Positions 6,801 through 64,000 of a stretch of DNA of 64,000 nt are shown here, in pieces. Below the pieces are notes generated by a model. That model searched no databases. It was not told where the DNA came from and worked only from the letters and a program-made list of their open reading frames with translations. Source of the stretch: Lingula anatina (Eukaryota; Animalia; Brachiopoda); assembly GCA_051362555.1 (NCBI GenBank), contig CM120640.1:32011967-32075966 (forward strand), in the 5' to 3' direction. How positions within the stretch are numbered: the first letter of the stretch is position 1; each line of letters starts with the position of its first letter. Position numbers and translations under genes: made by a program.

Positions 6801-7748
6801 TAAACTGTGTGTTTCAGGGACAGGCTTGAAAGAGAAAAAGCAGAAAAAGATCGAGCAGAAAAGGAGAGAGCAGAGCGTGACCGGCAGGAACGTGAGCGCC
6901 AAGAACGAGAGCAGCGTCAAGAACGAGAGCGTATTCTCAGGGAGTCTGCACAGACTGCTGCTGAAGCTGTAGAACAGCATTTCAGCAAGTCTTTGTCCCA
7001 GGTAACCTACAGTTCATTATTGTGACTGTTCCGGATATATGTCTTGATCACTCCTTCTGGTTCACAGTAATCTTGCAGACTAGAAACTGGTTCAGAGTCC
7101 ACCTGTATCATGCTGGAACGATTATATCATTTATTTCACTTTTGCGTGATGGCATCTGTATTATAAAATCAATAGTTTTTCTCTATGGTTGTATTTACAA
7201 CTTGGAACAAAAGTACCCTGGATGGAGGCTTGTGAATGATTTATAGGAAGAGGGTGATAAGAATCTCTGGGCAGCAATTGAAAGCAGATGCGAAATTTAT
7301 CTCCTTGTGGCAGAATGTTTTTTTTTTTACTCTGGAATATGGAGGTATTTGCCAGCATTAGGTGATCTAAGAAGTGTGTGGTATTTATCAACAGCTGTAT
7401 TGAATGCTTTCATCACTCACCACACACACACATACATAGACAGGCACGCATGCACACACACACACACAACCCCTTACAGAATTACACAGAGAGGATTCCT
7501 GGATACAATAGGTTTGCCTTGTAATGATAATTGGACTAATTAACACAGTGGTTAAGAGGCATTTTTCCCATCATTTTGCTATCCTCGCCTATGAAGTATT
7601 AAGAGAAAGGGGGGAGGTCATTGTTCAGCACGTTATTCGGTGGAAGTCATATTTTTTTCCAATTTTTTATTTTAAACTGAGCATGGGTTTAAAAAAGCAA
7701 CCCCTTTACATACACACACTATTTAAGCACACGTGCACACACACGCAC

Positions 7749-7786
<38 letters not shown>

Positions 7787-18669: not shown

Positions 18670-18723
<54 letters not shown>

Positions 18724-32465: not shown

Positions 32466-32518
32466 TTTATTTTGGTAATTAAACAACATAAAAGATCACA
32501 GGAGCTGACGGAGGTTAA

Positions 32519-32570
32519 TCCCCCCCCCCACCCCCCCCCACCCCCCCCCCCCCCACACACACACACACAA
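32519..32570. repeat. Poly-C / (CA)n tract
   Basis: Directly visible. Confidence 0.85.
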
Positions 32571-33749
32571 CAAACACGAAAGTTTTTTTTAAATCATGCC
32601 AGTTCTGAACAGTGAAAAGTGGGACTATGGATCCCTGCATGCCATCTTCTTTTAAGCAATTATAAGAATTAGTTAAAATATTTAAGCAAATGTAAAAAGT
32701 AACTAAAGCATTAAATCTCACCAAGCATTTTCCTTTCGTTATCCTTTCTCCTTGCAAAACTAAAGCTACCAAAAACTCCACATGAATGTTTATAGCAAAA
32801 ATGTATTATCACTTTATCTTTATTTCCATCATCTGTGAAACAAGATATGAAATGGAAGTTTCTTCTATATTGTGGATAAGTGTTCCAGTGTACGCGGACA
32901 AGGTCGTTCACTAATGGCCTGGGGCAGGTTAGTAAACTTCAGGTTGATATCATGTCAACAAGATGCAAGGACACTGTCAATAATAGGGGAGAAGTAAAAA
33001 ACTATTATATCACTGATTATTATCTCCGAAATAAATGCGTGTTTTCCCCTCTCTAAACAAAAAAGTTAAGGTATGAAAACGCTGAATGCACTTCAAACGT
33101 AGATATATATATACAATACAATAAGAGCGGGCAATTGTGAACATGTGATCACATTACAGCACACTGAGCAGCGGGATGGACTTATTGCGTTGCACTCCAG
33201 AGGAGAAAAAGGACGCGAAGTGAGAGTGATTTTCTTCGGCCAACCGCCTTCAAATCTCATGTGATCCTACGCCAATGCATCGCACTTGAGGATAGTTTCT
33301 TTACTAACACAAAACACCCAATGTTTCGTCTTTTTCCCATGGTGTGCTTCTGTGAATTCGACTCTTCAATCCATGCGGACTCATCGCTCTGGGAAATGTA
33401 CATGTACAAAAAAACACAGCTCTCAGCCCGGACGTCTAATAACCGCCGCATAGAAATTATTGGGAAACGGACAGCAATCCAAGCTACTGGAGATGGGTTA
33501 GTGCCACCATGTCATAGTCTTTTCATTTCTGCCATATTCCTCCTCTGCCCATGTTTGCCTTTTGAGGCTAGAACCAAAACCGTCATATGTCCTATTTAGA
33601 TCAACCTCATCGAGTTTTGTTGTCGTAGTTCTCTTCTAAGGCTGATTTGCATTTTCTCGTTTTTGTATTGTCTTGCATTTGTAATGTACTGTGTCAATAA
33701 CAAACTAAAAAAAATCTCATCTCATTTTCCTTTCCTTTTTGAGGGGGTG

Positions 33750-36700
33750 GAGGAGGGAGGGTACGTAAATTGAAAAAGTTCTAATCTCATTCTAATTTCT
33801 TTTTACAGGACATAGAAGATGATGAGTGCCAACCATCGAATATTGACTTCTCTTCGGATCAAGAATTTAAGGTTAGTAAATTTCATTTTTTTGGAGGGGA
33901 TTGGTAAATTGACTTAAAATCTAATCTAGTTTTATTTCTTTTTTACAGAACATTGAAGACAATGAGCGACTCTACCCAGACATAGACTTCACACATCGAT
34001 AGAAGTTAAGGTTAGTAATCTTTTTATTTGGGGGAGGGGGGGGGAGGATTGCGACAGGGTAAATTAAAAAGATCTAACCTCATTCCTATTTCTTTTACAG
34101 GACATAGAAGATGATGAATGCCTACCAGCCTACCAGCCTACCATCAAGCATTGACTACTCTTTGGATCAAGAATTTAAGGTTAGTAAATTTCATTTTTTT
34201 GGAGGGGATTGGTAAATTGACTTAAAATCTAATCTAGTTTTATTTCTTTTTTACAGAACATTGAAGACGATAAACGACTCTACCCAGACATAGACTTCAC
34301 ACATCGATAGAAGTTAAGGTTAGTAATCTTTTTATTTGGGGGAGGGGGGGGAGGATGGGGGAGAGGTAAATTAAAAAAGATCTTACCTCATTCCTATTTC
34401 TTTTACAGGACATAGAAGATGATGAATGCCTACCAGCCTACCAGCCTACCATCAAGCATTGACTACTCTTTGGATCAAGAATTTAAGGTTAGTAAATTTC
34501 ATTTTTTTGGAGGGGATAGGTAAATTGAATAAAAATCTAATCTAGTTTTATTTCCTTTACAGAACACAGAAGACGATGAAAGACTCTACCCAGACATAGA
34601 CTTCACACATCGATAGAAGTTAAGGTTAGTAAACTTTTTATTTGGGGGAGGGGGGGGGGAGGATGGGGGAGAGGTAAATTAAAAAGATCTAACCTCATTC
34701 CTATTTCTTTTACAGGACATAGAAGATGATGAATGCCTACCAGCCTACCATCAAGCATTGACTACTCTTTGGATCAAGAATTTAAGGTTAGTAAATTTCA
34801 TCTTTGGAGGGGATAGGTAAATTGAATTAAAATCTAATCTAGTTTTATTTCTTTTACAGAACAAAGAAGACAATGAAAGACTCTACCCAGACATAGACTT
34901 CACACATCGATAGAAGTTAAGGTTAGTAAACTTTTTATTTGGGGGAGGGGGGGGGGAGGATGGCGGGAGAGGTAAATTAAAAAGATCTAACCTCATTCCT
35001 ATTTCTTTTACAGGTCATAGAAGATGATGAATGCCTACCAGCCTACCAGCCTACCATCAAGCATTGACTACTCTTTGGATCATGAATTTAAGGTTAGTAA
35101 ATTTCATTTTTTTGGAGGGGATAGGTAAATTGAATAAAAATCTAATCTAGTTTTATTTCTTTTTACAGAACATAGAAGACTATGAGCGACTCTACCCTGA
35201 CATAGAATTCACACATCGATAGAAGTTAAGGTTGGTAAACTTATTATTTGGGGAAGGGGGGGATGTGGGGAGAGGTAAATTAAAAAGATCTAACCTCATT
35301 CCTATTTATTTTACAGGACATAGAAGATGATGAATGCATAGAATACGATGAGCGACTCTACCCAGACACAGACTTCACACATCGATAGAAGTTAAGGTAA
35401 GTAAACTTTTTATTTGGGGGAGGGGGGGGGGGAGGATGGGGGAGAGGTAAATTAAAAAGATCTAACCTCATTCCTATTTCTTTTACAGGACATAGAAGAT
35501 GATGAATGCCTACCAGCCTACTAGCCTACCATCAAGCATTGACTACTCTTTGGATCAAGAATTTAAGGTTAGTAAATTTCATTTTTTGGAGGGGATAGGT
35601 AAATTGAATTAAAATCTAATCTAGTTTTATTTCCTTTACAGAACACAGAAGACAATGAAAGACTCTACCCAGACACAGACTTCACACATCGATAGAAGTT
35701 AAGGTTAGTAAACATATTATTTGGGGGAGGGGGGGGATGTGGGGAGAGGTAAATTAAAAAGTTCTAACCTCATTCCTATTTCTTTTACAGGACATAGAAG
35801 ATGATGAATGCATAGAAGACGATGAGCGACTCTACCCAGACACAGACTTCACACATCGATAGAAGTTAAGGTTAGTAAACTTTTTATTTGGGGGAGGGGG
35901 GGGATGGGGGAGAGGTAAATTAAAAAGATCTAACCTCATTCCTGTTTCTTTTACAGGACATAGAAGATAATGCATGCATAGAAGACGATGAGCGACTCTA
36001 CCCAGACACAGACTTCACACGTCGATAGAAGTTAAGGTTAGTAAACTTTTTATTTGGGGGAGGGGGGGGGGAGGATGGGGGAGAGGTAAATTAAAAAGTT
36101 CTAACCTCATTCCTATTTCTTTTACAGGACATAGAAGATGATGAATGCATAGAAGACGATGAGCGACTCTACCCAGACACAGACTTCACACATCGATAGA
36201 AGTTAAGGTTAGTAAACTTTTTATTTGGGGGAGGGGGGGGGAGGATGGGGGAGAAGTAAATTAAAAAGATCTAACCTCATTCCTATTACTTTTACAGGAC
36301 ATAGAAGATGATGAATGCATAGAAGACGATGAGCGACTCTACCCAGACACAGACTTCACACATCGATAGAAGTTAAGGTTAGTAAACTTTTTATTTAGGG
36401 GAGGGGGGGGGGAGGATATGGGAGAGGTAAATTAAAAAGATCTAACCTCATTCCTGTTTCTTTTACAGGACATAGAAGATGATGTATGCATAGAAGACGA
36501 TGAGCGACTCTACCCAGACACAGACTTCACACATCGATAGAAGTTAAGGTTAGTAAACTTTTTATTTGGGGGAGGGGGGGGGGGGAGGATGGGGGAGAGG
36601 TAAATTAAAAAGTTCTAACCTCATTCCTATTTCTTTTACAGGACATAGAAGATGATGAATGCATAGAAGACGATGAGCGACTCTACCCAGACACAGACTT

Positions 36701-39700
36701 CGCACATCGATAGAAGTTAAGGTTAGTAAACTTTTTATTTGGGGGAGGGGGGGGAGGATATGGGAGAGGTAAATTAAAAAGATCTAACCTCATTCCTATT
36801 TCTTTTACAGGACATAGAAGATGATGAATGCATAGAAGACGATGAGCGACTCTACCCTGACATAGACTTCACACATCGATAGAAGTTAAGGTTAGTTAAC
36901 TTTTTATTTGGGGGAGGGGGGGGGGGTAAGATGGCGGGAGAGGTAAATTAAAAAGATCTAACCTCATTCCTATTTCTTTTACAGGACATAGAAGATGATG
37001 AATGCCTACCAGCCTACCAGCCTACCATCAAGCATTGACTACTCTTTGGATCAAGAATTTAAGGTTAGTAAATTTCAATTTTTGGAGGGGATAGGTAAAT
37101 TGAATTAAAATCTAATCTAGTTTTATTTCCTTTACAGAACACAGAAGACGATGAAAGACTCTACCCAGACATAGACTTCACACATCGATAGAAGTTAAGG
37201 TTAGTAAACTTTTTATTTGGGGGAGGGGGGGGGGGAGGATGGGGGAGAAGTAAATTAAAAAGATCTAACCTCATTCCTATTACTTTTACAGGACTTAGAA
37301 GATAATGAATGCATAGAAGACGATGAGCGACTCTACCCAGACACAGACTTCACACATCGATAGAAGTTAAGGTTAGTAAACTTATTATTTGGGGGAGGGG
37401 GGGGGGGAGGATGGGGGAGGGGTAAATTAAAAAGATCTAACCTGATTCCTGTTTCTTTTACAGGACATAGAAGATGATGTATGCATAGAAGACGATGAGC
37501 GACTCTACCCAGACACAGACTTCACACATCGATAAAAGTTAAGGTTAGTAAACTTTTTATTTGGGGGAGGGGGGGGGGAGGATGGGGGAGAGGTAAATTA
37601 AAAAGTTCTAACCTCATTCCTATTACTTTTACAGGACATAGAAGATGATGAATGCATAGAAGACGATGAGCGACTCTACCCAGACACAGACTTTACACAT
37701 CGATAGAAGTTAAGGTTAGTAAACTTATTATTTGGGGGAGGGGGGGGAGGATGGGGGAGAGGTAAATTAAAAAGATCTAACCTCATTCCTGTTTCTTTTA
37801 CAGGACATAGAAGATGATGTATGCATAGAAGACGATGAGCGACTCTACCCAGACACAGACTTCACACATCGATAGAAGTTAAGGTTAGTAAACTTTTTAT
37901 TTGGGGGAGGGGGGGGAGGATGGCGGGAGAGGTAAATTAAAAAGATCTAACCTCATTCCTATTTCTTTTACAGGACATAGAAGATGATGAATGCCTACCA
38001 GCCTACCAGCCTACCATCAAGCATTGACTACTCTTTGGATCAAGAATTTAAGGTTAGTAAATTTCATTTTTTGGAGGGGATAGGTAAATTGAATTAAAAT
38101 CTAATCTAGTTTTATTTCCTTTACAGAACACAGAAGACGATGAAAGACTCTACCCAGACATAGACTTCACACATCGATAGAAGTTAAGGTTAGTAAACTT
38201 TTTATTTGGGGGAGGGGGGGGGGAGGATGGGGGAGAAGTAAATTAAAAAGATCTAACCTCATTCCTATTACTTTTACAGGACATAGAAGATGATGAATAC
38301 ATAGAAGACGATGAGCGACTCTACCCAGACACAGACTTCACACATCGATAGAAGTTAAGGTTAGTAAACTTTTTATTTAGGGGAGGGGGGGGGGAGGATA
38401 TGGGAGAGGTAAATTAAAAAGATCTAACCTCATTCCTATTTCTTTTACAGGACATAGAAGATGATGAATGCATAGAAGACGATGAGCGACTCTACCCAGA
38501 CACAGACTTCACACATCGATAGAAGTTAAGGTTAGTAAACTTTTTATTTGGGGGAGGGGGGGGGGGGAGGATGGGGGAGAAGTAAATTAAAAAGACAACC
38601 TCATTCCTATTACTTTTACATGACATAGAAGATGATGTATGCATAGAAGACGATGAGCGACTCTACCCAGACACAGACTTCATACATCGATAGAAGTTAA
38701 GGTTAGTAAACTTTTTATTTGGGGGAGGGGGGGGGGATATGGGAGAGGTAAATTAAAAAGATCTAACCTCATTCCTATTACTTTTACAGGACTTAGAAGA
38801 TAATGAATGCATAGAAGACGATGAGCGACTCTACCCAGACACAGACTTCACACATCGATAGAAGTTAAGGTTAGTAAACTTATTATTTGGGGGAGGGGGG
38901 GGGGAGGATGGGGGAGGGGTAAATTAAAAAGATCTAACCTGATTCCTGTTTCTTTTACAGGACATAGAAGATGATGTATGCATAGAAGACGATGAGCGAC
39001 TCTACCCAGACACAGACTTCACACATCGATAAAAGTTAAGGTTAGTAAACTTTTTATTTGGGGGAGGGGGGGGGGGAGGATGGGGGAGAGGTAAATTAAA
39101 AAGTTCTAACCTCATTCCTATTACTTTTACAGGACATAGAAGATGATGAATGCATAGAAGACGATGAGCGACTCTACCCAGACACAGACTTTACACATCG
39201 ATAGAAGTTAAGGTTAGTAAACTTATTATTTGGGGGAGGGGGGGGAGGATGGGGGAGAGGTAAATTAAAAAGATCTAACCTCATTCCTGTTTCTTTTACA
39301 GGACATAGAAGATGATGTATGCATAGAAGACGATGAGCGACTCTACCCAGACACAGACTTCACACATCGATAGAAGTTAAGGTTAGTAAACTTTTTATTT
39401 GGGGGAGGGGGGGGAGGATGGCGGGAGAGGTAAATTAAAAAGATCTAACCTCATTCCTATTTCTTTTACAGGACATAGAAGATGATGAATGCCTACCAGC
39501 CTACCAGCCTACCATCAAGCATTGACTACTCTTTGGATCAAGAATTTAAGGTTAGTAAATTTCATTTTTTGGAGGGGATAGGTAAATTGAATTAAAATCT
39601 AATCTAGTTTTATTTCCTTTACAGAACACAGAAGACGATGAAAGACTCTACCCAGACATAGACTTCACACATCGATAGAAGTTAAGGTTAGTAAACTTTT

Positions 39701-42700
39701 TATTTGGGGGAGGGGGGGGGGAGGATGGGGGAGAAGTAAATTAAAAAGATCTAACCTCATTCCTATTACTTTTACAGGACATAGAAGATGATGAATACAT
39801 AGAAGACGATGAGCGACTCTACCCAGACACAGACTTCACACATCGATAGAAGTTAAGGTTAGTAAACTTTTTATTTAGGGGAGGGGGGGGGGAGGATATG
39901 GGAGAGGTAAATTAAAAAGATCTAACCTCATTCCTATTTCTTTTACAGGACATAGAAGATGATGAATGCATAGAAGACGATGAGCGACTCTACCCAGACA
40001 CAGACTTCACACATCGATAGAAGTTAAGGTTAGTAAACTTTTTATTTGGGGGAGGGGGGGGGGGGAGGATGGGGGAGAAGTAAATTAAAAAGACAACCTC
40101 ATTCCTATTACTTTTACATGACATAGAAGATGATGTATGCATAGAAGACGATGAGCGACTCTACCCAGACACAGACTTCATACATCGATAGAAGTTAAGG
40201 TTAGTAAACTTTTTATTTGGGGGAGGGGGGGGGGATATGGGAGAGGTAAATTAAAAAGATCTAACCTCATTCCTGTTTCTTTTACAGGACATAGAAGATG
40301 ATGTATGCATAGAAGACGATGAGCGACTCTACCCAGACACAGACTTCACACATCGATAGAAGTTAAGGTTAGTAAACTTTTTATTTGGGGGAGGGGGGGG
40401 GGGGAGGATGGGGGAGAGGTAAATTAAAAAGTTCTAACCTCATTCTTATTTCTTTTACAGGACATAGAAGATGATGAATGCATAGAAGACGATGAGCGAC
40501 TCTACCCAGACACAGACTTCACACATCGATAGAAGTTAAGGTTAGTAAACTTTTTATTTAGGGGAGGGGGGGGAGGATATGGGAGAGGTAAATTAAAAAG
40601 ATCTAACCTCATTCCTATTTCTTTTACAGGACATAGAAGATGATGAATGCATAGAAGACGATGAGCGACTCTACCCTGACATAGACTTCACACATCGATA
40701 GAAGTTAAGGTTAGTTAACTTTTTATTTGGGGGAGGGGGGGGGGGTAGGATGGCGGGAGAGGTAAATTAAAAAGATCTAACCTCATTCCTATTTCTTTTA
40801 CAGGACATAGAAGATGATGAATGCCTACCAGCCTACCAGCCTACCATCAAGCATTGACTACTCTTTGGATCAAGAATTTAAGGTTAGTAAATTTCATTTT
40901 TTGGAGGTGATAGGTAAATTGAATTAAAATCTAATCTAGTTTTATTTCCTTTACAGAACACAGAAGACGATGAAAGACTCTACCAAGACATAGACTTCAC
41001 ACATCGATAGAAGTTAAGGTTAGTAAACTTTTTATTTGGGGGAGGGGGGGGGGAGGATGGGGGAGAAGTAAATTAAAAAGATCTAACCTCATTCCTATTA
41101 CTTTTACAGGACATAGAAGATGATGAATGCATAGAAGACGATGAGCGACTCTACCCAGACACAGACTTCACACATCGATAGAAGTTAAGGTTAGTAAACT
41201 TTTTATTTGGGGGAGGGGGGGGGGGGGGAGGATGGGGGAGAGGTAAATTAAAAAGTTCTAACCTCATTCCTATTTCTTTTACAGGACATAGAAGATGATG
41301 AATGCATAGAAGACGATGAGCGACTCTACCCAGACACAGACTTCACACATCGATAGAAGTTAAGGTTAGTAAACTTTTTATTTGGGGGAGGGGGGGGGGA
41401 GGATATGGGAGAGGTAAATTAAAAAGATCTAACCTCATTCCTATTTCTTTTACAGGACATAGAAGATGATGAATGCATAGAAGACGATGAGCGACTCTAC
41501 CCTGACATAGACTTCACACATCGATAGAAGTTAAGGTTAGTAAACTTTTTATTTGGGGGAGGGGAGGGGGGGGGTAGGATGGCGGGAGAGGTAAATTAAA
41601 AAGATCTAACCTCATTCCTATTTCTTTTACAGGACATAGAAGATGATGAATGCCCACCAGCCTACCAGCCTACCATCAAGCATTGACTACTCTTTGGATC
41701 AAGAATTTAAGGTTAGTAAATTTCATTTTTTGGAGGGGATAGGTAAATTGAATTAAAATCTAATCTAGTTTTATTTCATTTACAGAACACAGAAGACGAT
41801 GAAAGACTCTACCCAGACATAGACTTCACACATCGATAGAAGTTAAGGTTAGTAAACTTTTTATTTGGGGGAGGGGGGGGGGAGGATGGGGGAGAAGTAA
41901 ATTAAAAAGATCTAACCTCATTCCTATTACTTTTACAGGACATAGAAGATGATGAATGCATAGAAGACGATGAGCGACTCTACCCAGACACAGACTTCAC
42001 ACATCGATAGAAGTTAAGGTTAGTAAACTTTTTATTTAGGGGAGGGGGGGGGGAGGATATGGGAGAGGTAAATTAAAAAGATCTAACCTCATTCCTATTT
42101 CTTTTACAGGACATAGAAGATGATGAATGCATAGAAGACGATGAGCGACTCTACCCAGACACAGACTTCACACATCGATAGAAGTTAAGGTTAGTAAACT
42201 TTTTATTTGGGGGAGGGGGGGGGGGGAGGATGGGGGAGAAGTAAATTAAAAAGACCTAACCTCATTCCTATTACTTTTACAGGACATAGAAGATGATGAA
42301 TGCATAGAAGACGATGAGCGACTCTACCCAGACACAGACTTCATACATCGATAGAAGTTAAGGTTAGTAAACTTTTTATTTGGGGGAGGAGGGGGGAGGA
42401 TATGGGAGAGGTAAATTAAAAAGATCTAACCTCATTCCTGTTTCTTTTACAGGACATAGAAGATGATGTATGCATAGAAGACGATGAGCGACTCTACCCA
42501 GACACAGACTTCACACATCGATAGAAGTTATGGTTAGTAAACTTTTTATTTGGGGGAGGGGGGGGGTATGGGGGAGAGTTAAATTAAAAAGTTCTAACCT
42601 CATTCCTATTTCTTTTACAGGACATAGAAGATGATGAATGCATAGAAGACGATGAGCGACTCTACCCAGACACAGACTTCGCACATCGATAGAAGTTAAG

Positions 42701-45700
42701 GTTAGTAAACTTTTTATTTGGGGGAGGGGGGGGGGAGGATATGGGAGAGGTAAATTAAAAAGATCTAACCTCATTCCTATTTCTTTTACAGGACATAGAA
42801 GATGATGAATGCATAGAAGACGATGAGCGACTCTACCCTGACATAGACTTCACACATCGATAGAAGTTAAGGTTAGTTAACTTTTTATTTGGGGGAGGGG
42901 GGGGGGTAAGATGGCGGGAGAGGTAAATTAAAAAGATCTAACCTCATTCCTATTTCTTTTACAGGACATAGAAGATGATGAATGCCTACCAGCCTACCAG
43001 CCTACCATCAAGCATTGACTACTCTTTGGATCAAGAATTTAAGGTTAGTAAATTTCATTTTTTGGAGGGGATAGGTAAATTGAATTAAAATCTTATCTAG
43101 TTTTATTTCCTTTACAGAACACAGAAGACGATGAAAGACTCTACCCAGACATAGACTTCACACATCGATAGAAGTTAAGGTTAGTAAACTTTTTATTTGG
43201 GGGAGGGGGGGGAGGATGGGGGAGAAGTAAATTAAAAAGATCTAACCTCATTCCTATTACTTTTACAGGACATAGAAGATGATGAATGCATAGAAGACGA
43301 TGAGCGACTCTACCCAGACACAGACTTTACACATCGATAGAAGTTAAGGTTAGTAAACTTATTATTTGGGTGAGGGGGGGGGAGGATGGGGGAGAGGTAA
43401 ATTAAAAAGATCTAACCTCATTCCTGTTTCTTTTACAGGACATAGAAGATGATGTATGCATAGAAGACGATGAGCGACTCTACCCAGACACAGACTTCAC
43501 ACATCGATAGAAGTTAAGGTTAGTAAACTTTTTATTTGGGGGAGGGGGGGGGAGGATGGGGGAGAGGTAAATTAAAAAGTTCTAACCTCATTCCTATTTC
43601 TTTTACAGGACATAGAAGATGATGAATGCATAGAAGACGATGAGCGACTCTACCCAGACACAGACTTCACACATCGATAGAAGTTAAGGTTAGTAAACTT
43701 TTTATTTGGGGGAGGGGGGGGGGAGGATATGGGAGAGGTAAATTAAAAAGATCTAACCTCATTCCTATTTCTTTTACAGGACATATAAGATGATGAATGC
43801 ATAGAAGACGATGAGCAACTCTACCCTGACATAGACTTCACACATCGATAGAAGTTAAGGTTAGTAAACTTTTTATTTGGGGGAGGGGGGGGGGAGGATG
43901 GCGGGAGAGGTAAATTAAAAAGATCTAACCTCATTCCTGTTTCTTTTACAGGACATAGAAGATGATGAATGCCTACCAGCCTACCAGCCTACCATCAAGC
44001 ATTGACTACTCTTTGGATCAAGAATTTAAGGTTAGTAAATTTCATTTTTTGGAGGGGATAGGTAAATTGAATTAAAATCTAATCTAGTTTTATTTCCTTT
44101 ACAGAACACAGAAGACGATGAAAGACTCTACCCAGACATAGACTTCACACATCGATAGAAGTTAAGGTTAGTAAACTTTTTATTTGGGGGAGGGGGGGGG
44201 GAGGATGGGGGAGAAGTAAATTAAAAAGATCTAACCTCATTCCTATTACTTTTACAGGACATAGAAGATGATGAATGCATAGAAGACGATGAGCGACTCT
44301 ACCCAGACACAGACTTCACACATCGATAGAAGTTAAGGTTAGTAAACTTTTTATTTAGGGGAGGGGGGAAGGGAGGATATGGGAGAGGTAAATTAAAAAG
44401 ATCTAACCTCATTCCTATTTCTTTTACAGGACATAGAAGATGATGAATGCATAGAAGACGATGAGCGACTCTACCCAGACACAGACTTCACATATCGATA
44501 GAAGTTAAGGTTAGTAAACTCTTTATTTGGGGGAGGGGGGGGGGAGGATATGGGAGAGGTAAATTAAAAAGATCTAACCTCATTCCTATTTCTTTTACAG
44601 GACATAGAAGATGATGTATGCATAGAAGACGATGAGCGACTCTACCCAGACACAGACTTCACACATCGATAGAAGTTAAGGTTAGTAAACTTTTTATTTA
44701 GGGGAGGGGGGGGGGAGGATATGGGAGAGGTAAATAAAAAAGATCTAACCTCATTCCTATTTCTTTTACAGGACATAGAAGATGATGAATGCATAGAAGA
44801 CGATGAGCGACTCTACCCAGACACAGACTTCACACATCGATAGAAGTTAAGGTTAGTAAACTTTTTATTTGGGGGAGGGGGGGGGGGGAGGATGGGGGAG
44901 AAGTAAATTAAAAAGACCTAACCTCATTCCTATTACTTTTACAGGACATAGAAGATGATGAATGCATAGAAGACGATGAGCGACTCTACCCAGACACAGA
45001 CTTCATACATCGATAGAAGTTAAGGTTAGTAAACTTTTTATTTGGGGGAGGAGGGGGGAGGATATGGGAGAGGTAAATTAAAAAGATCTAACCTCATTTC
45101 TGTTTCTTTTACAGGACATAGAAGATGATGTATGCATAGAAGACGATGAGCGACTCTACCCAGACACAGACTTCACACATCGATAGAAGTTATGGTTAGT
45201 AAACTTTTTATTTGGGGGAGGGGGGGGAGGATGGGGGAGAGGTAAATTAAAAAGTTCTAACCTCATTCCTATTTCTTTTACAGGACATAGAAGATGATGA
45301 ATGCATAGAAGACGATGAGCGACTCTACCCAGACACAGACTTCGCACATCGATAGAAGTTAAGGTTAGTAAACTTTTTATTTGGGGGAGGGGGGGGGGGA
45401 GGATGGGGGAGAAGTAAATTAAAAAGACCTAACCTCATTCCTATTACTTTTACAGGACATAGAAGATGATGAATGCATAGAAGACGATGAGCGACTCTAC
45501 CCAGACACAGACTTCATACATCGATAGAAGTTAAGGTTAGTAAACTTTTTATTTGGGGGAGGAGGGGGGAGGATATGGGAGAGGTAAATTAAAAAGATCT
45601 AACCTCATTCCTGTTTCTTTTACAGGACATAGAAGATGATGTATGCATAGAAGACGATGAGCGACTCTACCCAGACACAGACTTCACACATCGATAGAAG

Positions 45701-51700: not shown

Positions 51701-54700
51701 AGGGGGGGGGGGGAGGATGGGGGAGAGGTAAATTAAAAAGATCTAACCTCATTCCTGTTTCTTTTACAGGACATAGAAGATGATGTATGCATAGAAGACG
51801 ATGAGCGACTCTACCCAGACACAGACTTCACACATCGATAGAAGTTAAGGTTAGTAAACTTTTTATTTGGGGGAGGAGGGGGAGGATGGGGGAGAGGTAA
51901 ATTAAAAAGTTCTAACCTCATTCCTATTTCTTTTACAGGACATAGAAGATGATGAATGCATAGAAGACGATGAGCGACTCTACCCAGACACAGACTTCAC
52001 ACATCGATAGAAGTTAAGGTTAGTAAACTTTTTATTTGGGGGAGGGGGGGGGGAGGATATGGGAGAGGTAAATTAAAAAGATCTAACCTCATTCCTATTT
52101 CTTTTACAGGACATAGAAGATGATGAATGCATAGAAGACGATGAGCGACTCTACCCTGACATAGACTTCACACATCGATAGAAGTTAAGGTTAGTAAACT
52201 TTTTATTTTGGGGAGGGGGGGAGGATGGCGGGAGAGGTAAATTAAAAAGATCTAACCTCATTCCTGTTTCTTTTACAGGACATAGAAGATGATGAATGCC
52301 TACCAGCCTACCATCAAGCATTGACTACTCTTTGGATCAAGAATTTAAGGTTAGTAAATTTCATTTTTTGGAGGGGATAGGTAAATTGAATTAAAATCTA
52401 ATCTAGTTTTATTTCCTTTACAGAACACAGAAGACGATGAAAGACTCTACCCAGACATAGACTTCACACATCGATAGAAGTTAAGGTTAGTAAACTTTTT
52501 ATTTGGGGGAGGGGGGGGGAGGATGGGGGAGAAGTAAATTAAAAAGATCTAACCTCATTCCTATTACTTTTACAGGACATAGAAGATGATGAATGCATAG
52601 AAGACGATGAGCGACTCTACCCAGACACAGACTTCACACATCGATAGAAGTTAAGGTTAGTAAACTTATTATTTGGGGGAGGGGGGGGGGAGGATGGGGG
52701 AGAGGTAAATTAAAAAGATCTAACCTGATTCCTGTTTCTTTTACATGACATAGAAGATGATGTATGCATAGAAGACGATGAGCGACTCTACCCAGACACA
52801 GACTTCACACATCGATAGAAGTTAAGGTTAGTAAACTTTTTATTTGGGGGAGGGGGGGGGGGAGGATGGGGGAGAAGTAAATTAAAAAGATCTAACCTCA
52901 TTCCTATTACTTTTACAGGACATAGAAGATAATGAATGCATAGAAGACGATGAGCGACTCTACCCAGACACAGACTTTACACATCGATAGAAGTTAAGGT
53001 TAGTAAACTTATTATTTGGGGGAGGGGGGGGGGAGGATGGGGGAGAGGTAAATTAAAAAGATCTAACCTCATTCCTGTTTCTTTTACAGGACATAGAAGA
53101 TGATGTATGCATAGAAGACGATGAGCGACTCTACCCAGACACAGACTTCACACATCGATAGAAGTTAAGGTTAGTAAACTTTTTATTTGGGGGAGGGGGG
53201 GGGAGGATGGGGGACAGGTAAATTAAAAAGTTCTAACCTCATTCCTATTTCTTTTACAGGACATAGAAGATGATGAATGCATAGAAGACGATGAGCGACT
53301 CTACCCAGACACAGACTTCACACATCGATAGAAGTTAAGGTTAGTAAACTTTTTATTTGGGGGAGGGGGGGGGGAGGATGGGGGAGAGGTAAATTAAAAA
53401 GATCTAACCTCATTCCTATTTCTTTTACAGGACATAGAAGATGATGAATGCATAGAAGACGATGAGCGACTCTACCCTGACATAGACTTCACACATCGAT
53501 AGAAGTTAAGGTTAGTTAACTTTTTATTTGGGGGAGGGGGGGGGGTAGGATGGCGGGAGAGGTAAATTAAAAAGATCTAACCTCATTCCTATTTCTTTTA
53601 CAGGACATAGAAGATGATGAATGCCTACCAGCCTACCAGCCTACCATCAAGCATTGACTACTCTTTGGATCAAGAATTTAAGGTTAGTAAATTTCATTTT
53701 TTGGAGGTGATAGGTAAATTGAATTAAAATCTAATCTAGTTTTATTTCCTTTACAGAACACAGAAGACGATGAAAGACTCTACCCAGACATAGACTTCAC
53801 ACATCAATAGAAGTTAAGGTTAGTAAACTTTTTATTTGGGGGAGGGGGGGGGAGGATGGGGGAGAAGTAAATTAAAAAGATCTAACCTCATTCCTATTAC
53901 TTTTACAGGACATAGAAGATGATGTATGCATAGAAGACGATGAGCGACTCTACCCAGACACAGACTTCACACATCGATAGAAGTTAAGGTTAGTAAACTT
54001 TTTATTTGGGGGAGGGGGGGGGGAGGATGGGGGAGAAGTAAATTAAAAAGATCTAACCTCATTCCTATTACTTTTACAGGACATAGAAGATAATGAATGC
54101 ATAGAAGACGATGAGCGACTCTACCCAGACACAGACTTTACACATCGATAGAAGTTAAGGTTAGTAAACTTATTATTTGGGGGAGGGGGGGGGGGGAGGA
54201 TGGGGGAGAGGTAAATTAAAAAGATCTAACCTCATTCCTGTTTCTTTTACAGGACATAGAAGATGATGTATGCATAGAAGACGATGAGCGACTCTACCCA
54301 GACACAGACTTCACACATCGATAGAAGTTAAGGTTAGTAAACTTTTTATTTGGGGGAGGAGGGGGAGGATGGGGGAGAGGTAAATTAAAAAGTTCTAACC
54401 TCATTCCTATTTCTTTTACAGGACATAGAAGATGATGAATGCATAGAAGACGATGAGCGACTCTACCCAGACACAGACTTCACACATCGATAGAAGTTAA
54501 GGTTAGTAAACTTTTTATTTGGGGGAGGGGGGGGGGAGGATATGGGAGAGGTAAATTAAAAAGATCTAACCTCATTCCTATTTCTTTTACAGGACATAGA
54601 AGATGATGAATGCATAGAAGACGATGAGCGACTCTACCCTGACATAGACTTCACACATCGATAGAAGTTAAGGTTAGTAAACTTTTTATTTTGGGGAGGG

Positions 54701-57700
54701 GGGGAGGATGGCGGGAGAGGTAAATTAAAAAGATCTAACCTCATTCCTGTTTCTTTTACAGGACATAGAAGATGATGTATGCATAGAAGACGATGAGCGA
54801 CTCTACCCAGACACAGACTTCACACATCGATAGAAGTTAAGGTTAGTAAACTTTTTATTTGGGGGAGGAGGGGGAGGATGGGGGAGAGGTAAATTAAAAA
54901 GTTCTAACCTCATTCCTATTTCTTTTACAGGACATAGAAGATGATGAATGCATAGAAGACGATGAGCGACTCTACCCAGACACAGACTTCACACATCGAT
55001 AGAAGTTAAGGTTAGTAAACTTTTTATTTGGGGGAGGGGGGGGGGAGGATATGGGAGAGGTAAATTAAAAAGATCTAACCTCATTCCTATTTCTTTTACA
55101 GGACATAGAAGATGATGAATGCATAGAAGACGATGAGCGACTCTACCCTGACATAGACTTCACACATCGATAGAAGTTAAGGTTAGTAAACTTTTTATTT
55201 TGGGGAGGGGGGGAGGATGGCGGGAGAGGTAAATTAAAAAGATCTAACCTCATTCCTGTTTCTTTTACAGGACATAGAAGATGATGAATGCCTACCAGCC
55301 TACCATCAAGCATTGACTACTCTTTGGATCAAGAATTTAAGGTTAGTAAATTTCATTTTTTGGAGGGGATAGGTAAATTGAATTAAAATCTAATCTAGTT
55401 TTATTTCCTTTACAGAACACAGAAGACGATGAAAGACTCTACCCAGACATAGACTTCACACATCGATAGAAGTTAAGGTTAGTAAACTTTTTATTTGGGG
55501 GAGGGGGGGGGAGGATGGGGGAGAAGTAAATTAAAAAGATCTAACCTCATTCCTATTACTTTTACAGGACATAGAAGATGATGAATGCATAGAAGACGAT
55601 GAGCGACTCTACCCAGACACAGACTTCACACATCGATAGAAGTTAAGGTTAGTAAACTTATTATTTGGGGGAGGGGGGGGGGAGGATGGGGGAGAGGTAA
55701 ATTAAAAAGATCTAACCTGATTCCTGTTTCTTTTACATGACATAGAAGATGATGTATGCATAGAAGACGATGAGCGACTCTACCCAGACACAGACTTCAC
55801 ACATCGATAGAAGTTAAGGTTAGTAAACTTTTTATTTGGGGGAGGGGGGGGGGGAGGATGGGGGAGAAGTAAATTAAAAAGATCTAACCTCATTCCTATT
55901 ACTTTTACAGGACATAGAAGATAATGAATGCATAGAAGACGATGAGCGACTCTACCCAGACACAGACTTTACACATCGATAGAAGTTAAGGTTAGTAAAC
56001 TTATTATTTGGGGGAGGGGGGGGGGAGGATGGGGGAGAGGTAAATTAAAAAGATCTAACCTCATTCCTGTTTCTTTTACAGGACATAGAAGATGATGTAT
56101 GCATAGAAGACGATGAGCGACTCTACCCAGACACAGACTTCACACATCGATAGAAGTTAAGGTTAGTAAACTTTTTATTTGGGGGAGGGGGGGGGAGGAT
56201 GGGGGACAGGTAAATTAAAAAGTTCTAACCTCATTCCTATTTCTTTTACAGGACATAGAAGATGATGAATGCATAGAAGACGATGAGCGACTCTACCCAG
56301 ACACAGACTTCACACATCGATAGAAGTTAAGGTTAGTAAACTTTTTATTTGGGGGAGGGGGGGGGGAGGATATGGGAGAGGTAAATTAAAAAGATCTAAC
56401 CTCATTCCTATTTCTTTTACAGGACATAGAAGATGATGAATGCATAGAAGACGATGAGCGACTCTACCCTGACATAGACTTCACACATCGATAGAAGTTA
56501 AGGTTAGTAAACTTTTTATTTGGGGGAGGGGGGGAGGATGGCGGGAGAGGTAAATTAAAAAGATCTAACCTCATTCCTGTTTCTTTTACAGGACATAGAA
56601 GATGATGAATGCCTACCAGCCTACCAGCCTACCATCAAGCATTGACTACTCTTTGGATCAAGAATTTAAGGTTAGTAAATTTCATTTTTTGGAGGGGATA
56701 GGTAAATTGAATTAAAATCTAATCTAGTTTTATTTCTTTTACAGAACACAGAAGACGATGAAAGACTCTACCCAGACATAGACTTCACACATCGATAGAA
56801 GTTAAGGTTAGTAAACTTTTTATTTGGGGGAGGGGGGGGGGAGGATGGGGGAGAAGTAAATTAAAAAGATCTAACCTCATTCCTATTACTTTTACAGGAC
56901 ATAGAAGATGATGAATGCATAGAAGACGATGAGCGACTCTACCCAGACATAGACTTCACACATCGATAGAAGTTAAGGTTAGTAAACTTTTTATTTGGGG
57001 GAGGGGGGGGAGGATGGGGGAGAAGTAAATTAAAAAGATCTAACCTCATTCCTATTACTTTTACAGGACATAGAAGATGATGAATGCATAGAAGACGATG
57101 AGCGACTCTACCCAGACACAGACTTTACACATCGATAGAAGTTAAGGTTAGTAAACTTATTATTTGGGGGAGGGGGGGGAGGATGGCGGGAGAGGTAAAT
57201 TAAAAAGATCTAACCTCATTCCTGTTTCTTTTACAGGACATAGAAGATGATGAATGCCTACCAGCCTACCATCAAGCATTGACTACTCTTTGGATCAAGA
57301 ATTTAAGGTTAGTAAATTTCATTTTTTGGAGGGGATAGGTAAATTGAATTAAGATCTAATCTAGTTTTATTTCCTTTACAGAACACAGAAGACGATGAAA
57401 GACTCTACCCAGACATAGACTTCACACATCGATAGAAGTTAAGGTTAGTAAACTTTTTATTTGGGGGAGGGGGGGGGAGGATGGGGGAGAAGTAAATTAA
57501 AAAGATCTAACCTCATTCCTATTACTTTTACAGGACATAGAAGATGATGAATGCATAGAAGACGATGAGCGACTCTACCCAGACACAGACTTCACACATC
57601 GATAGAAGTTAAGGTTAGTAAACTTATTATTTGGGGGAGGGGGGGGAGGATGGGGGAGAGGTAAATTAAAAAGATCTAACCTGATTCCTGTTTCTTTTAC

Positions 57701-60700
57701 ATGACATAGAAGATGATGTATGCATAGAAGACGATGAGCGACTCTACCCAGACACAGACTTCACACATCGATAGAAGTTAAGGTTAGTAAACTTTTTATT
57801 TGGGGGAGGGGGGGGGGGAGGATGGGGGAGAAGTAAATTAAAAAGATCTAACCTCATTCCTATTACTTTTACAGGACATAGAAGATAATGAATGCATGGA
57901 AGACGATGAGCGACTCTACCCAGACACAGACTTTACACATCGATAGAAGTTAAGGTTAGTAAACTTATTATTTGGGGGAGGGGGGGGGAGGATGGGGGAG
58001 AGGTAAATTAAAAAGATCTAACCTCATTCCTGTTTCTTTTACAGGACATAGAAGATGATGTATGCATAGAAGACGATGAGCGACTCTACCCAGACACAGA
58101 CTTCACACATCGATAGAAGTTAAGGTTAGTAAACTTTTTATTTGGGGGAGGGGGGGGGGGAGGATGGGGGAGAGGTAAATTAAAAAGTTCTAACCTCATT
58201 CCTATTTCTTTTACAGGACATAGAAGATGATGAATGCATAGAAGACGATGAGCGACTCTACCCTGACATAGACTTCACACATCGATAGAAGTTAAGGTTA
58301 GTAAACTTTTTATTTGGGGGAGGGGGGGAGGATGGCGGGAGAGGTAAATTAAAAAGATCTAACCTCATTCCTGTTTTTTTTACAGGACATAGAAGATGAT
58401 GAATGCCTACCAGCCTACCAGCCTACCATCAAGCATTGACTACTCTTTGGATCAAGAATTTAAGGTTAGTAAATTTCATTTTTTGGAGGGGATACGTAAA
58501 TTGAATTAAAATCTAATCTAGTTTTATTTCCTTTACAGAACACAGAAGACGATGAAAGACTCTACCCAGACATAGACTTCACACATCGATAGAAGTTAAG
58601 GTTAGTAAACTTTTTATTTGGGGGAGGGGGGGGGGAGGATGGGGGAGAAGTAAATTAAAAAGATCTAACCTCATTCCTATTACTTTTACAGGACATAGAA
58701 GATGATGAATGCATAGAAGACGATGAGCGACTCTACCCAGACATAGACTTCACACATCGATAGAAGTTAAGGTTAGTAAACTTTTTATTTGGGGGAGGGG
58801 GGGGGGAGGATGGGGGAGAAGTAAATTTAAAAGATCTAACCTCATTCCTATTACTTTTACAGGACATAGAAGATGATGAATGCATAGAAGACGATGAGCG
58901 ACTCTACCCAGACACAGACTTCACACATCGATAGAAGTTAAGGTTAGTAAACTTATTATTTGGGGGAGGGGGGGGGGAGGATCGGGGAGAGGTAAATTAA
59001 AAAGATCTAACCTGATTCCTGTTTCTTTTACAGGACATAGAAGATGATGTATGCATAGAAGACGATGAGCGACTCTACCCAGACACAGACTTCACACATC
59101 GATAGAAGTTATGGTTAGTAAACTTTTTATTTGGGGGAGGGGGGGGGGAGGATGGGGGAGAGGTAAATTAAAAAGATCTAACCTCATTCCTATTTCTTTT
59201 ACAGGACATAGAAGATGATGAATGCATAGAAGACGATGAGCGACTCTACCCTGACATAGACTTCACACATCGATAGAAGTTAAGGTTAGTTAACTTTTTA
59301 TTTGGGGGAGGGGGGGGGGGTAGGATGGCGGGAGAGGTAAATTAAAAAGATCTAACCTCATTCCTATTTCTTTTACAGGACATAGAAGATGATGAATGCC
59401 TACCAGCCTACCAGCCTACCAGCCTACCATCAAGCATTGACTACTCTTTGGATCAAGAATTTAAGGTTAGTAAATTTCATTTTTTTGGAGGGGATAGGTA
59501 AATTGAATAAAAATCTAATCTAGTTTTATTTCTTTTTACAGAACATAGAAGACTATGAGCGACTCTACCCTGACATAGAATTCACACATCGATAGAAGTT
59601 AAGGTTGGTAAACTTATTATTTGGGGAAGGGGGTCATGTGGGGAGAGGTAAATTAAAAAGATCTAACCTCATTCCTATTTATTTTACAGGACATAGAAGA
59701 TGATGAATGCATAGAAGACGATGAGCGACTCTACCCAGACACAGACCTCACACATCGATAGAAGTTAAGGTAAGTAAACTTTTTATTTGGGGGAGGGGGG
59801 GGGGGGAGGATGGGGGAGAGGTAAATTAAAAAGATCTAACCTCATTCCTATTTCTTTTACAGGACATAGAAGATGATGAATGCCTACCAGCCTACCAGCC
59901 TACCATCAAGCATTGAGTACTCTTTGGATCAAGAATTTAAGGTTAGTAAATTTCATTTTTTGGAGGGGATAGGTAAATTGAATTAAAATCTAATCTAGTT
60001 TTATTTCCTTTACAGAACACAGAAGACGATGAAAGACTCTACCCAGACACAGACTTCACACATCGATAGAAGTTAAGGTTAGTAAACTTATTATTTGGGG
60101 GAGGGGGGGATGTGGGGAGAGGTAAATTAAAAAGTTCTAACCTCATTCCTATTGCTTTTACAGGACATAGAAGATGATAAATGCATAGAAGACGATGAGC
60201 GACTCTACCCTGACATAGACTTCACACATCGATAGAAGTTAAGGTTAGTAAACTTTTTATTTGGGGGAGGGGGGGGGGAGGATGGCGGGAGAGGTAAATT
60301 AAAAAGATCTAACCTCATTCCTATTTCTTTTACAGGACATAGAAGATGATGAATGCCTACCAGCCTACCAGCCTACCATCAAGCATTGACTACTCTTTGG
60401 ATCAAGAATTTAAGGTTAGTAAATTTCATTTTTTGGAGGGGATAGGTAAATTGAATTAAAATCTAATCTAGTTTTATTTCCTTTACAGAACACAGAAGAC
60501 GATGAAAGACTCTACCCAGACACAGACTTCACACATCGATAGAAGTTAAGGTTAGTAAACATATTATTTGGGGGAGGGGGGGGGATGTGGGGAGAGGTAA
60601 ATTAAAAAGTTCTAACCTCATTCCTATTTCTTTTACAGGACATAGAAGATGATGAATGCATAGAAGACGATGAGCGACTCTACCCAGACACAGACTTCAC

Positions 60701-63700
60701 ACATCGATAGAAGTTAAGGTTAGTAAACTTTTTATTTGGGGGAGGGGGGGGATGGGGGAGAGGTAAATTAAAAAGATCTAACCTCATTCCTGTTTCTTTT
60801 ACAGGACATAGAAGATGATGCATGCATAGAAGACGATGAGCGACTCTACCCAGACACAGACTTCACACGTCGATAGAAGTTAAGGTTAGTAAACTTTTTA
60901 TTTGGGGGAGGGGGGGGGAGAATACGGGAGAGGTAAATTAAAAAGATCTAACCTCATTCCTGTTTCTTTTACAGGACATAGAAGATGATGTATGCATAGA
61001 AGACGATGAGCGACTCTACCCAGACACAGACTTCACACATCGATAGAAGTTAAGGTTAGTAAACTTTTTATTTGGGGGAGGGGGGGGAGGATGGGGGAGA
61101 GGTAAATTAAAAAGTTCTAACCTCATTCCTATTTCTTTTACAGGACATAGAAGATGATGAATGCATAGAAGACGATGAGCGACTCTACCCAGACACAGAC
61201 TTCACACATCGATAGAAGTTAAGGTTAGTAAACTTTTTATTTGGGGGAGGGGGGGGGGAGGATATGGGAGAGGTAAATTAAAAAGATCTAACCTCATTCC
61301 TATTTCTTTTACAGGACATAGAAGATGATGAATGCATAGAAGACGATGAGCGACTCTACCCTGACATAGACTTCACACATCGATAGAAGTTAAGGTTAGT
61401 AAACTTTTTATTTGGGGGAGGGGAGGGGGGGTAGGATGGCGGGAGAGGTAAATTAAAAAGATCTAACCTCATTCCTATTTCTTTTACAGGACATAGAAGA
61501 TGATGAATGCCCACCAGCCTACCAGCCTACCATCAAGCATTGACTACTCTTTGGATCAAGAATTTAAGGTTAGTAAATTTCATTTTTTGGAGGGGATAGG
61601 TAAATTGAATTAAAATCTAATCTAGTTTTATTTCATTTACAGAACACAGAAGACGATGAAAGACTCTACCCAGACATAGACTTCACACATCGATAGAAGT
61701 TAAGGTTAGTAAACATATTATTTGGGGGAGGGGGGGGGGATGTGGGGAGAGGTAAATTAAAAAGTTCTAACCTCATTCCTATTTCTTTTACAGGACATAG
61801 AAGATGATGAATGCATAGAAGACGATGAGCGACTCTACCCAGACACAGACTTCACACATCGATAGAAGTTAAGGTTAGTAAACTTTTTATTTGGGGGAGG
61901 GGGGGGGGATGGGGGAGAGGTAAATTAAAAAGATCTAACCTCATTCCTGTTTCTTTTACAGGACATAGAAGATGATGCATGCATAGAAGACGATGAGCGA
62001 CTCTACCCAGACACAGACTTCACACGTCGATAGAAGTTAAGGTTAGTAAACTTTTTATTTGGGGGAGGGGGGGGGGAGGATACGGGAGAGGTAAATTAAA
62101 AAGATCTAACCTCATTCCTGTTTCTTTTACAGGACATAGAAGATGATGTATGCATAGAAGACGATGAGCGACTCTACCCAGACACAGACTTCACACATCG
62201 ATAGAAGTTAAGGTTAGTAAACTTTTTATTTGGGGGAGGGGGGGGGGAGGATGGGGGAGAGGTAAATTAAAAAGTTCTAACCTCATTCCTATTTCTTTTA
62301 CAGGACATAGAAGATGATGAATGCATAGAAGACGATGAGCGACTCTACCCTGACATAGACTTCACACATCGATAGAAGTTAAGGTTAGTAAACTTTTTAT
62401 TTGGGGGAGGGGGGGAGGATGGCGGGAGAGGTAAATTAAAAAGATCTAACCTCATTCCTGTTTTTTTTACAGGACATAGAAGATGATGAATGCCTACCAG
62501 CCTACCAGCCTACCATCAAGCATTGACTACTCTTTGGATCAAGAATTTAAGGTTAGTAAATTTCATTTTTTGGAGGGGATAGGTAAATTGAATTAAAATC
62601 TAATCTAGTTTTATTTCCTTTACAGAACACAGAAGACGATGAAAGACTCTACCCAGACATAGACTTCACACATCGATAGACGTTAAGGTTAGTAAACTTT
62701 TTATTTGGGGGAGGGGGGGGGAGGATGGGGGAGAAGTAAATTAAAAAGATCTAACCTCATTCCTATTACTTTTACAGGACATAGAAGATGATGAATGCAT
62801 AGAAGACGATGAGCGACTCTACCCAGACATAGACTTCACACATCGATAGAAGTTAAGGTTAGTAAACTTTTTATTTGGGGGAGGGGGGGGGGGAGGATGG
62901 GGGAGAAGTAAATTTAAAAGATCTAACCTCATTCCTATTACTTTTACAGGACATAGAAGATGATGAATGCATAGAAGACGATGAGCGACTCTACCCAGAC
63001 ACAGACTTCACACATCGATAGAAGTTAAGGTTAGTAAACTTATTATTTGGGGGAGGGGGGGGGGGAGGATCGGGGAGAGGTAAATTAAAAAGATCTAACC
63101 TGATTCCTGTTTCTTTTACAGGACATAGAAGATGATGTATGCATAAAAGACGATGAGCGACTCTACCCAGACACAGACTTCACACATCGATAGAAGTTAT
63201 GGTTAGTAAACTTTTTATTTGGGGGAGGGGGGGGGAGGATGGGGGAGAGGTAAATTAAAAAGATCTAACCTCATTCCTATTTCTTTTACAGGACATAGAA
63301 GATGATGAATGCATAGAAGACGATGAGCGACTCTACCCTGACATAGACTTCACACATCGATAGAAGTTAAGGTTAGTTAACTTTTTATTTGGGGGAGGGG
63401 GGGGGGGTAGGATGGCGGGAGAGGTAAATTAAAAAGATCTAACCTCATTCCTATTTCTTTTACAGGACATAGAAGATGATGAATGCCTACCAGCCTACCA
63501 GCCTACCATCAAGCATTGACTACTCTTTGGATCATGAATTTAAGGTTAGTAAATTTCATTTTTTTGGAGGGGATAGGTAAATTGAATAAAAATCTAATCT
63601 AGTTTTATTTCTTTTTACAGAACATAGAAGACTATGAGCGACTCTACCCTGACATAGAATTCACACATCGATAGAAGTTAAGGTTGGTAAACTTATTATT

Positions 63701-64000
63701 TGGGGAAGGGGGTCATGTGGGGAGAGGTAAATTAAAAAGATCTAACCTCATTCCTATTTATTTTACAGGACATAGAAGATGATGAATGCATAGAAGACGA
63801 TGAGCGACTCTACCCAGACACAGACTTCACACATCGATAGAAGTTAAGGTAAGTAAACTTTTTATTTGGGGGAGGGGGGGGGGGAGGATGGGGGAGAGGT
63901 AAATTAAAAAGATCTAACCTCATTCCTATTTCTTTTACAGGACATAGAAGATGATGAATGCCTACCAGCCTACCAGCCTACCATCAAGCATTGACTACTC
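33750..64000 (+). repeat. Tandem array of >30 kb (runs off the window), roughly 180 units of about 140-170 bp; each unit is an exon-like segment plus a G-rich intron-like segment; three monomer types with higher-order repeats
   Basis: Main monomer, about 170 bp: GACATAGAAGATGATGAATGCATAGAAGACGATGAGCGACTCTACCCAGACACAGACTTCACACATCGATAGAAGTTAAG|GTTAGTAAACTTTTTATTT(G-run)AGGTAAATTAAAAAGATCTAACCTCATTCCTATTTCTTTTACAG. The unit count is estimated as length divided by period. Confidence 0.97.
33809..33871 (+). other. Intact 63-nt phase-0 exon-like founder unit, DIEDDECQPSNIDFSSDQEFK
   Basis: ttttacag|GAC...AAG|gttagt; open reading, length a multiple of 3; most divergent unit, at the array edge. Confidence 0.55.

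Follow-up and report, generated by a model that had tools for sequence, protein, structure and literature searches.

A tandem array of exon–intron units in the brachiopod Lingula anatina, with transcribed and partly spliced relatives

How should a satellite be read when each of its monomers has the form of an exon followed by an intron? The question is raised by a 64,000-nucleotide (nt) stretch of Lingula anatina DNA (GenBank assembly GCA_051362555.1, contig CM120640.1, positions 32,011,967 to 32,075,966; hereafter the window), which ends in a tandem array of this kind. An earlier note, made from the letters alone, had counted roughly 180 monomers, each a splicing cassette on the + strand, and had proposed either a coding module decayed into satellite DNA or a 'hyper-spliced' repetitive non-coding RNA. 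We find that the structure is real and unusual: probably a repeat-built non-coding gene, with splicing at the level of the family and no detected cargo. The reading we prefer, to which we give a probability of about 0.52, is that the array consists of at least 183 real, frame-less exon–intron units and probably represents the amplified body of a single gene from a non-coding repeat-exon family in Lingula, a family whose related copies are transcribed in sense and partly spliced.

Architecture and splice signals of the array

The array and its first units lie as follows.

33809..64000, + strand: tandem array of at least 183 exon–intron units in the order (AB)4 ABC ABC6 ..., continuing past the window
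33741..33808, + strand: 3′ part of the intron preceding the first exon, with G-run, branch point, pyrimidine tract and AG; its 5′ part is unlike the array donor
33809..33871, + strand: first type-A exon, 63 nt, open in phase 0 (21 codons, acidic)
33872..33948, + strand: first short (A-to-B) intron, 77 nt; introns of this kind have no listed read junction
33949..34010, + strand: first type-B exon, 62 nt, with stops in all frames
34011..34100, + strand: first long, G-rich intron, 90 nt; reads joining B end to A start are in register with it (32 reads, 3 runs)
35317..35396, + strand: first type-C exon, 80 nt; the dominant unit, with 123 copies

Parsing by donor and acceptor resolved 183 complete exons alternating without gaps with 183 introns from 33809 to 63940, and Tandem Repeats Finder reported a single 171-nt array reaching the window end. 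A 184th exon is cut by that end, indicating that the array runs on. A search of positions 1–33760 for further copies of the monomer found none that was significant (best E 0.2). The units fall into three types (30 A, 30 B and 123 C). Type B exons are 62 nt long and type C exons 80 nt; the first type A exon is 63 nt, and the other A copies reach 71–87 nt through one to three added 8-nt units, so that the exon lengths are 62 nt (30 copies), 63 nt (1), 71 nt (4), 79 nt (24), 80 nt (123) and 87 nt (1). The 62–87 nt given for the exons beforehand is thus the measured range, and the GAAGA motif ascribed to them is present in all 183, once in 64 and twice in 119. The 77–92 nt given for the introns was wrong: 30 introns are 73–77 nt long, and 153 are 86–97 nt. 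An intron that follows an A exon is always short and leads to B, whereas an intron that follows B or C is long and G-rich. The G-run described near the donor is a property of the long introns, where it starts at about intron position +20; the short introns have GGGG only. A G-quadruplex pattern is matched by 126 of the 153 long introns. With its long head-to-tail array, homogenised monomers and higher-order blocks, the locus has the makeup of a satellite.

Every intron begins with GT, within the hexamer GTTAGT in 176 cases, GTAAGT in three, GTTGGT in three and GTTACT in one. The exons end in AAG (177) or ATG (6), and the acceptors are TACAG (178) or TACAT (5). A CTRAY branch-point motif lies within the last 45 nt of 176 of the 183 introns; the branch A stands 23–25 nt from the intron end in 169, in line with the earlier estimate of about 25 nt. 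We scored these sites with matrices built from the few sites of two flanking genes (23 donors and 26 acceptors). Median scores for the array and for the real sites were 9.4 versus 8.6 bits at donors and 8.7 versus 7.9 bits at acceptors, and array scores were reached by 0.6% of 3730 decoy GT and 1.3% of 4263 decoy AG dinucleotides. In dinucleotide shuffles of the units, with either strand counted, an equally good cassette arose in 0 of 3000 for A, 0 of 3000 for B and 6 of 3000 for C; at a lenient threshold, it arose in 4–6 of 1000. The units therefore carry the ordered donor GT, branch point, pyrimidine tract and AG of a U2-type module, at a strength like that of the organism's own sites. We conclude that the array unit is a real splicing cassette, beyond chance, and that the proposal of some 180 such cassettes, with their signals in the correct order, holds, with GT in all 183 units, AG in 178 and a branch-point motif in 176.

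Divergence of the unit types and spread of the array

The three types differ in how they appear to have arisen. In a global alignment of the first A–B pair, the donor, branch-core and acceptor positions are identical at 18 of 18, as against 87 of 122 positions elsewhere (p=0.004); for an interior pair the figures are 18 of 18 and 87 of 135 (p=0.0007). The scoring of these alignments was set by the analyst, and certain blocks outside the signals are conserved too. This pattern is what selection for splicing would leave, and since the signals were kept while A and B diverged, the module was probably once a working exon and intron. By sequence comparison, A and B appear to be old paralogues. The C exon consists of the first 20 nt of A and the last 60 nt of B, joined at a 5′ motif common to both, suggesting that C is a chimera produced by one unequal crossover at that motif.

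The edge of the array is pure A–B and its interior is dominated by C. The C exons differ from their commonest copy at a mean of 1.15 positions per 80 nt, exact blocks recur at lags of 9–19 units, and two independent losses of AG to AT have been propagated, one to two units and the other to three (five in total). Segments 59542–59862 and 63621–63940 repeat rare edge variants of 35169–35488 (GTTGGT followed by GTAAGT donors), and such interior copies point to long-range block duplication. As a separate observation, CpG positions in the C exons vary no more than other positions (1 of 6 versus 19 of 74), which may mean that there is little germ-line methylation.

Within the array, 8 of 34 signal columns and 78 of 254 other columns vary (p=0.26), so that present selection on the signals inside the array is undetected, at the low power that 34 signal columns allow. 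It had been cautioned beforehand that recent amplification alone could explain the conserved signals. Inside the array that caution holds; between A and B the signals were kept through divergence.

The joined exons, 14,030 nt in all, contain 366–388 stops per frame, and their longest open stretch is 56 codons. Genes for repeat proteins duplicate phase-0 modules together with their introns by unequal crossing-over. Such genes retain an open frame, whereas no frame stays open across the spliced exons of the Lingula array. The first exon and one 87-nt copy are the only exons both open and a multiple of three in length; in the other 181 of the 183 the length is not divisible by three. The earlier claim of stops in every frame holds for the 79-nt A exon and for the B and C exons, but not for these two, which are open in phase 0. 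On the minus strand the longest open stretch is 118 codons. Pfam gave no match in the array, and an Atlas protein search gave no usable hit. A protein word search returned six word-sharing candidates, none at E up to 10, and a profile search of 1.84 billion representatives returned two hits (E 1e-4 and 7e-4) and no real relative, both being weak tests for a 21-residue unit. The two profile hits are repeat proteins that resemble the exon over 11–13 residues alone, and we took them as chance. A 24-nt junction motif had no match in metagenome contigs.

Transcription and splicing of related copies

A search for RNA runs containing the array sequence listed none, which weighs neither for nor against transcription. 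We mapped eight RNA sequencing runs of poly(A)-type or unspecified selection bearing the same species label (X6 was left out of nine) at 80% likeness to target stretches that stop after the first A and B unit. About 6 in 100 reads of each run of studies P1 and P2 were examined, and 25–30 in 100 of each run of study P3; junctions were listed from three reads upwards. The minus-strand neighbouring gene served as control. Its known introns appear in 14 (X2) and 23 (X3) reads over 28533–28852, and its first mates fall on the + strand (19.5 versus 0 and 21.6 versus 0.5), indicating that first mates lie opposite to the RNA strand. First mates of the array family fall on the − strand: 97.5 versus 1.5 in X1, 39.2 versus 1.0 in X2 and 21.8 versus 0.65 in X3. 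We conclude that the array-family RNA in X1–X3 is sense-strand. Runs X2 and X3, from P1, agree with the window at the control exons. At 28852–29010, a 159-nt exon, five fixed sites set X8 and X9 (P3) apart from the window, with which X2 and X3 agree there; one species label may cover two diverged populations or cryptic species.

Joints in spliced register were found in 51 reads from five of the eight runs, all from related copies. B end is joined to A start in 5, 16 and 11 reads (X7, X8 and X9) that begin at 5, 11 and 6 different places; one read of X8 and four of X9 join A end to A start. A variant exon with another 3′ half is joined to the next exon start in five reads of X1, five of X7 and four of X3, and in fewer than three of X2. 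Left out of the 51 are four joined reads from 33872 to 33807, with unknown letters between, and joints from 33831 to 33780 and from 33893 to 33795. The + strand transcripts and junction reads that had been sought therefore exist at family level. Of the exon–exon junctions proposed, that from B end to A start was recovered, but that from A to B was not listed in any of the eight runs at three or more reads. The B–A joints could be back-splices, although the poly(A)-type selection of the libraries makes linear splicing the likelier source.

Reads of X1–X3 at 33780–33831 show a fourth unit type, absent from the window, whose exon measures 52 nt and whose intron resembles the short ones. This exon follows an array intron end and has the first 23 nt of exon A, then a different 3′ half and an array-like end. 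The unit that carries it is the main expressed member in X1–X3, where 89 (X1), 113 (X2) and 43 (X3) variant reads continue into the upstream intron-like sequence. In X8 and X9, 16 and 11 spliced reads stand against 47 and 35 that enter the G-run of the long intron, the latter being a soft count owing to poly-G ends. One read with 67 letters on its shorter side would, judging from its length, imply that a long intron was removed beside a short intron that was kept. The term 'hyper-spliced' thus does not fit: most family reads retain the intron, and the main type of the array is nearly absent. Intron removal is seen for the related copies; as for the array itself, one read of X2 fits its main type.

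Two stretches upstream of the array are candidate leads for its 5′ end.

33150..33496, + strand: candidate leader exon; related sequence is sense-transcribed; donor GG/GTTAGT at 33497
32847..32941, + strand: second candidate upstream exon end; donor at 32928, with 14 nt in common with that of the array (BLAST E 0.24)

Sequence related to 33150–33500 is sense-transcribed in X1–X3 (P1) only, and depth falls near the donor at 33497. No joint from 33497 or 32928 to the array is listed in the RNA runs. The CpG observed/expected ratio of the candidate leader, 0.99, is not distinct from that of the rest of 29–32 kb. A reading of 33150–33715 as a piece of a long interspersed nuclear element (LINE) found no support in a six-frame reading by eye or in one Pfam scan.

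Competing explanations and known systems

Under our preferred reading, one exon–intron module would have been duplicated into A and B while selection on splicing still acted, the motif common to the 5′ ends of both would have been the site of an unequal crossover that gave the chimeric C, and further unequal exchange would have expanded C and the A–B blocks to more than 30 kb, with no detectable selection on the signals. RNA polymerase II would read through the units; the G-rich introns of 86–97 nt would be spliced out in about one in four of the informative reads, and those of 73–77 nt would mostly be retained, or the downstream exon skipped. Nonsense-mediated decay could remove the spliced product, which would be a substrate for it by virtue of its short AUG frames and many downstream junctions, and such decay would leave intron-containing RNA dominant. 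The copy number of the array is probably neutral. Several observations weigh against this reading. Only one read, in X2, shows the letters that mark the array's B and C units while differing little otherwise, even though reads from more than 150 copies would pile up on the reference, and the array therefore appears silent in these samples. Those A and B reads that are spliced belong to the P3 runs, which differ from the assembly at the five control-exon sites; P3 libraries are largely unstranded, and their unspliced reads may include DNA. The B-to-A joint, at the exact splice offset of 202, is placed three letters to the left of the exon end with no shared letters, which would need a C at exon position −3 in that variant. 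Mates may be counted twice, the joined form is known from RNA runs alone, X4 gave eight reads and X5 none. A 'neutral' amplification also goes beyond what 34 signal columns can show, and the codon pattern of A and B, to which we now turn, hints at a different ancestry.

If the locus were a decayed protein-coding gene, its 63-nt phase-0 exons would once have encoded an acidic 21-residue repeat, frameshifts would have turned them into satellite, and the transcription and splicing would be residual. The first exon, 63 nt long, open and of phase 0-0, fits this. Moreover, A and B align without gaps over 15 codons, where differences at codon positions 1, 2 and 3 number 7, 2 and 9; position 2, with 2 of 18, is under-represented (p=0.01, or about 0.03 allowing for three classes), which hints at a coding ancestor. 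Upstream, 32847–32927 offers an in-phase donor with an ATG frame, but this phase-0 frame contains one stop and has no read support. The synonymous excess between A and B is not significant (p=0.18), nearly all exon lengths break the frame, the read variant in P1 is 52 nt, and no protein relative was found by tests that are weak for so short a peptide. The coding-module origin proposed earlier is thus weakly hinted at by the codon positions, and we think it doubtful that the locus is such a gene. About equally doubtful is a functional architectural RNA, whose dense splice sites would gather small nuclear ribonucleoproteins and serine/arginine-rich (SR) proteins at the locus as proposed for chicken LL2R, perhaps in oocytes or embryos, with copy number tuning the sink. 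One donor and one acceptor per 140–175 nt, signals kept across diverged types, and strand-specific poly(A) family RNA, mainly intron-containing, in three matched runs (X1–X3, from one strand at family level) would suit such a role, as would the LL2R precedent and the scarcity of AATAAA (5 in 30 kb of array). Yet ATTAAA occurs 173 times, the array is almost silent in the matched runs, signal sites within it are not depleted of change, and its donors and acceptors are balanced where LL2R donors are not. It is tentative, in the same degree, to go further and suppose a cargo-free, sense-transcribed satellite family of splicing cassettes through which Lingula would, by varying copy number, tune a scaffold or sink for spliceosome, SR and exon-junction factors; the locus, a member with at least 183 exons, would then be active in a stage outside those sampled.

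A gene hosting small RNAs in its introns, whether small nucleolar RNAs (snoRNAs), mirtrons or stable lariats, would likewise be a non-coding transcript built of repeated exons and introns, and the G-quadruplex pattern of the long introns might be taken to favour it. It is nonetheless very improbable, as is the small-RNA source suggested beforehand: a C box is found in 0 of 183 introns and CTGA in 7, Rfam has no match within the array at E up to 1 (four weak matches in 29500–37500 lie outside it), and six introns folded no better than shuffles (z −0.58 to +0.78). Introns of 73–97 nt also leave little room for cargo. The end-to-end hairpin of a mirtron is absent from the six introns folded. We also considered a spliced-leader RNA gene. 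The Sm pattern is RAU4-7GR; A-T4-7-GG occurs in 29 of 30 short introns and the full pattern in one, and we rejected this identity, the units carrying an acceptor. Least credible of all is an ordinary satellite with a chance likeness to splice sites, its joints coming from intron-less DNA copies or library artefacts. The joined forms are known from RNA runs alone and one joint is shifted by three letters, as this would allow, but shuffles almost never give such a cassette, and three different exon ends join one exon start in splice register in two studies.

The SNORD115/SNORD116 hosts and rat Bsr/RBII-36 are long non-coding transcripts of tandemly repeated exons and introns (PMC3413130), and the likeness lies in that layout. 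Their introns each carry a box C/D snoRNA, whereas the Lingula introns have no C box, Rfam match or hairpin; the array is therefore not a member of the snoRNA host class. Nearest in proposed working is chicken LL2R, a tandem array transcribed from one strand and rich in splice sites, for which poorly completed splicing is proposed (bioRxiv 10.64898/2026.03.19.712899). Those features are shared, but LL2R has unbalanced donors and a LINE promoter, whereas in Lingula donors and acceptors are strictly paired and the family has exact junction reads. In Firre, an exonic repeat, RRD, makes up 7 of the 13 exons in human and 11 of the 23 in mouse, and its action in nuclear retention and hnRNPU binding has been tested (PMC4820808). 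Both are non-coding genes with exons that are copies of one local repeat, but Firre repeats exons only, and the Lingula monomer is a whole exon and intron in at least 183 adjacent copies. We found no description of the Lingula repeat in the parts of the published literature available to us, and the supplements or repeat libraries of the two Lingula genome papers may list the family; the terms tandem repeat, satellite, lncRNA and intron are all absent from the main text of PMC13121700, and the available passages of PMC4595640 do not mention the repeat.

With the A–B dimer at its edge, C inside and relatives still spliced, the array may catch in progress the path from a spliced gene module to satellite DNA. 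Near-identical cassettes that differ in intron length (73–77 versus 86–97 nt) and in the G-run form a natural test bed. Among A and B units the junction reads come from the long type only, so that both minimal intron size and enhancement by the G-run could be put to the test in a brachiopod. Should the RNA gather splicing factors, architectural RNAs like LL2R and Firre would extend to a spiralian, in an array whose splice sites are much denser and strictly balanced; should the amplification be neutral, the locus would chiefly be an oddity of repeat evolution and a pitfall for gene prediction.

The two flanking genes served above as references.

1811..20507, + strand: KDM3-type JmjC demethylase gene; its splice sites went into the matrices
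22813..29418, − strand: gene with ERCC4 and helix-hairpin-helix domains (UniRef name MUS81; RefSeq LOC106168870); control for strand and identity

The minus-strand neighbour matches LOC106168870 of Lingula anatina at 96% over 300 residues, and the plus-strand neighbour is 97–100% identical to a Lingula KDM3 protein in 9 of 10 aligned pieces. All 23 flanking-gene introns measured are longer than those of the array (163–2989 nt), and GTTAGT is the donor in two of the 23. The KDM3 gene has two very long low-complexity exons (1811–3832 and 9470–11554, with 673 and 694 codons of open frame); the part that the 830-aa RefSeq isoform covers lies downstream of both. In the ERCC4-domain gene the last exon is long and of low complexity, and its end gives a weak CUE-like match (E 0.11, below the cut-off); two RefSeq loci, of 895 and 899 aa, share one cluster. 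Inspection by eye showed short elements with inverted ends at 31190–31470 and 27007–27180. The element at 31.2–31.5 kb drew many diverged reads on both strands in four RNA runs, as expected of a high-copy repeat resembling a miniature inverted-repeat transposable element.

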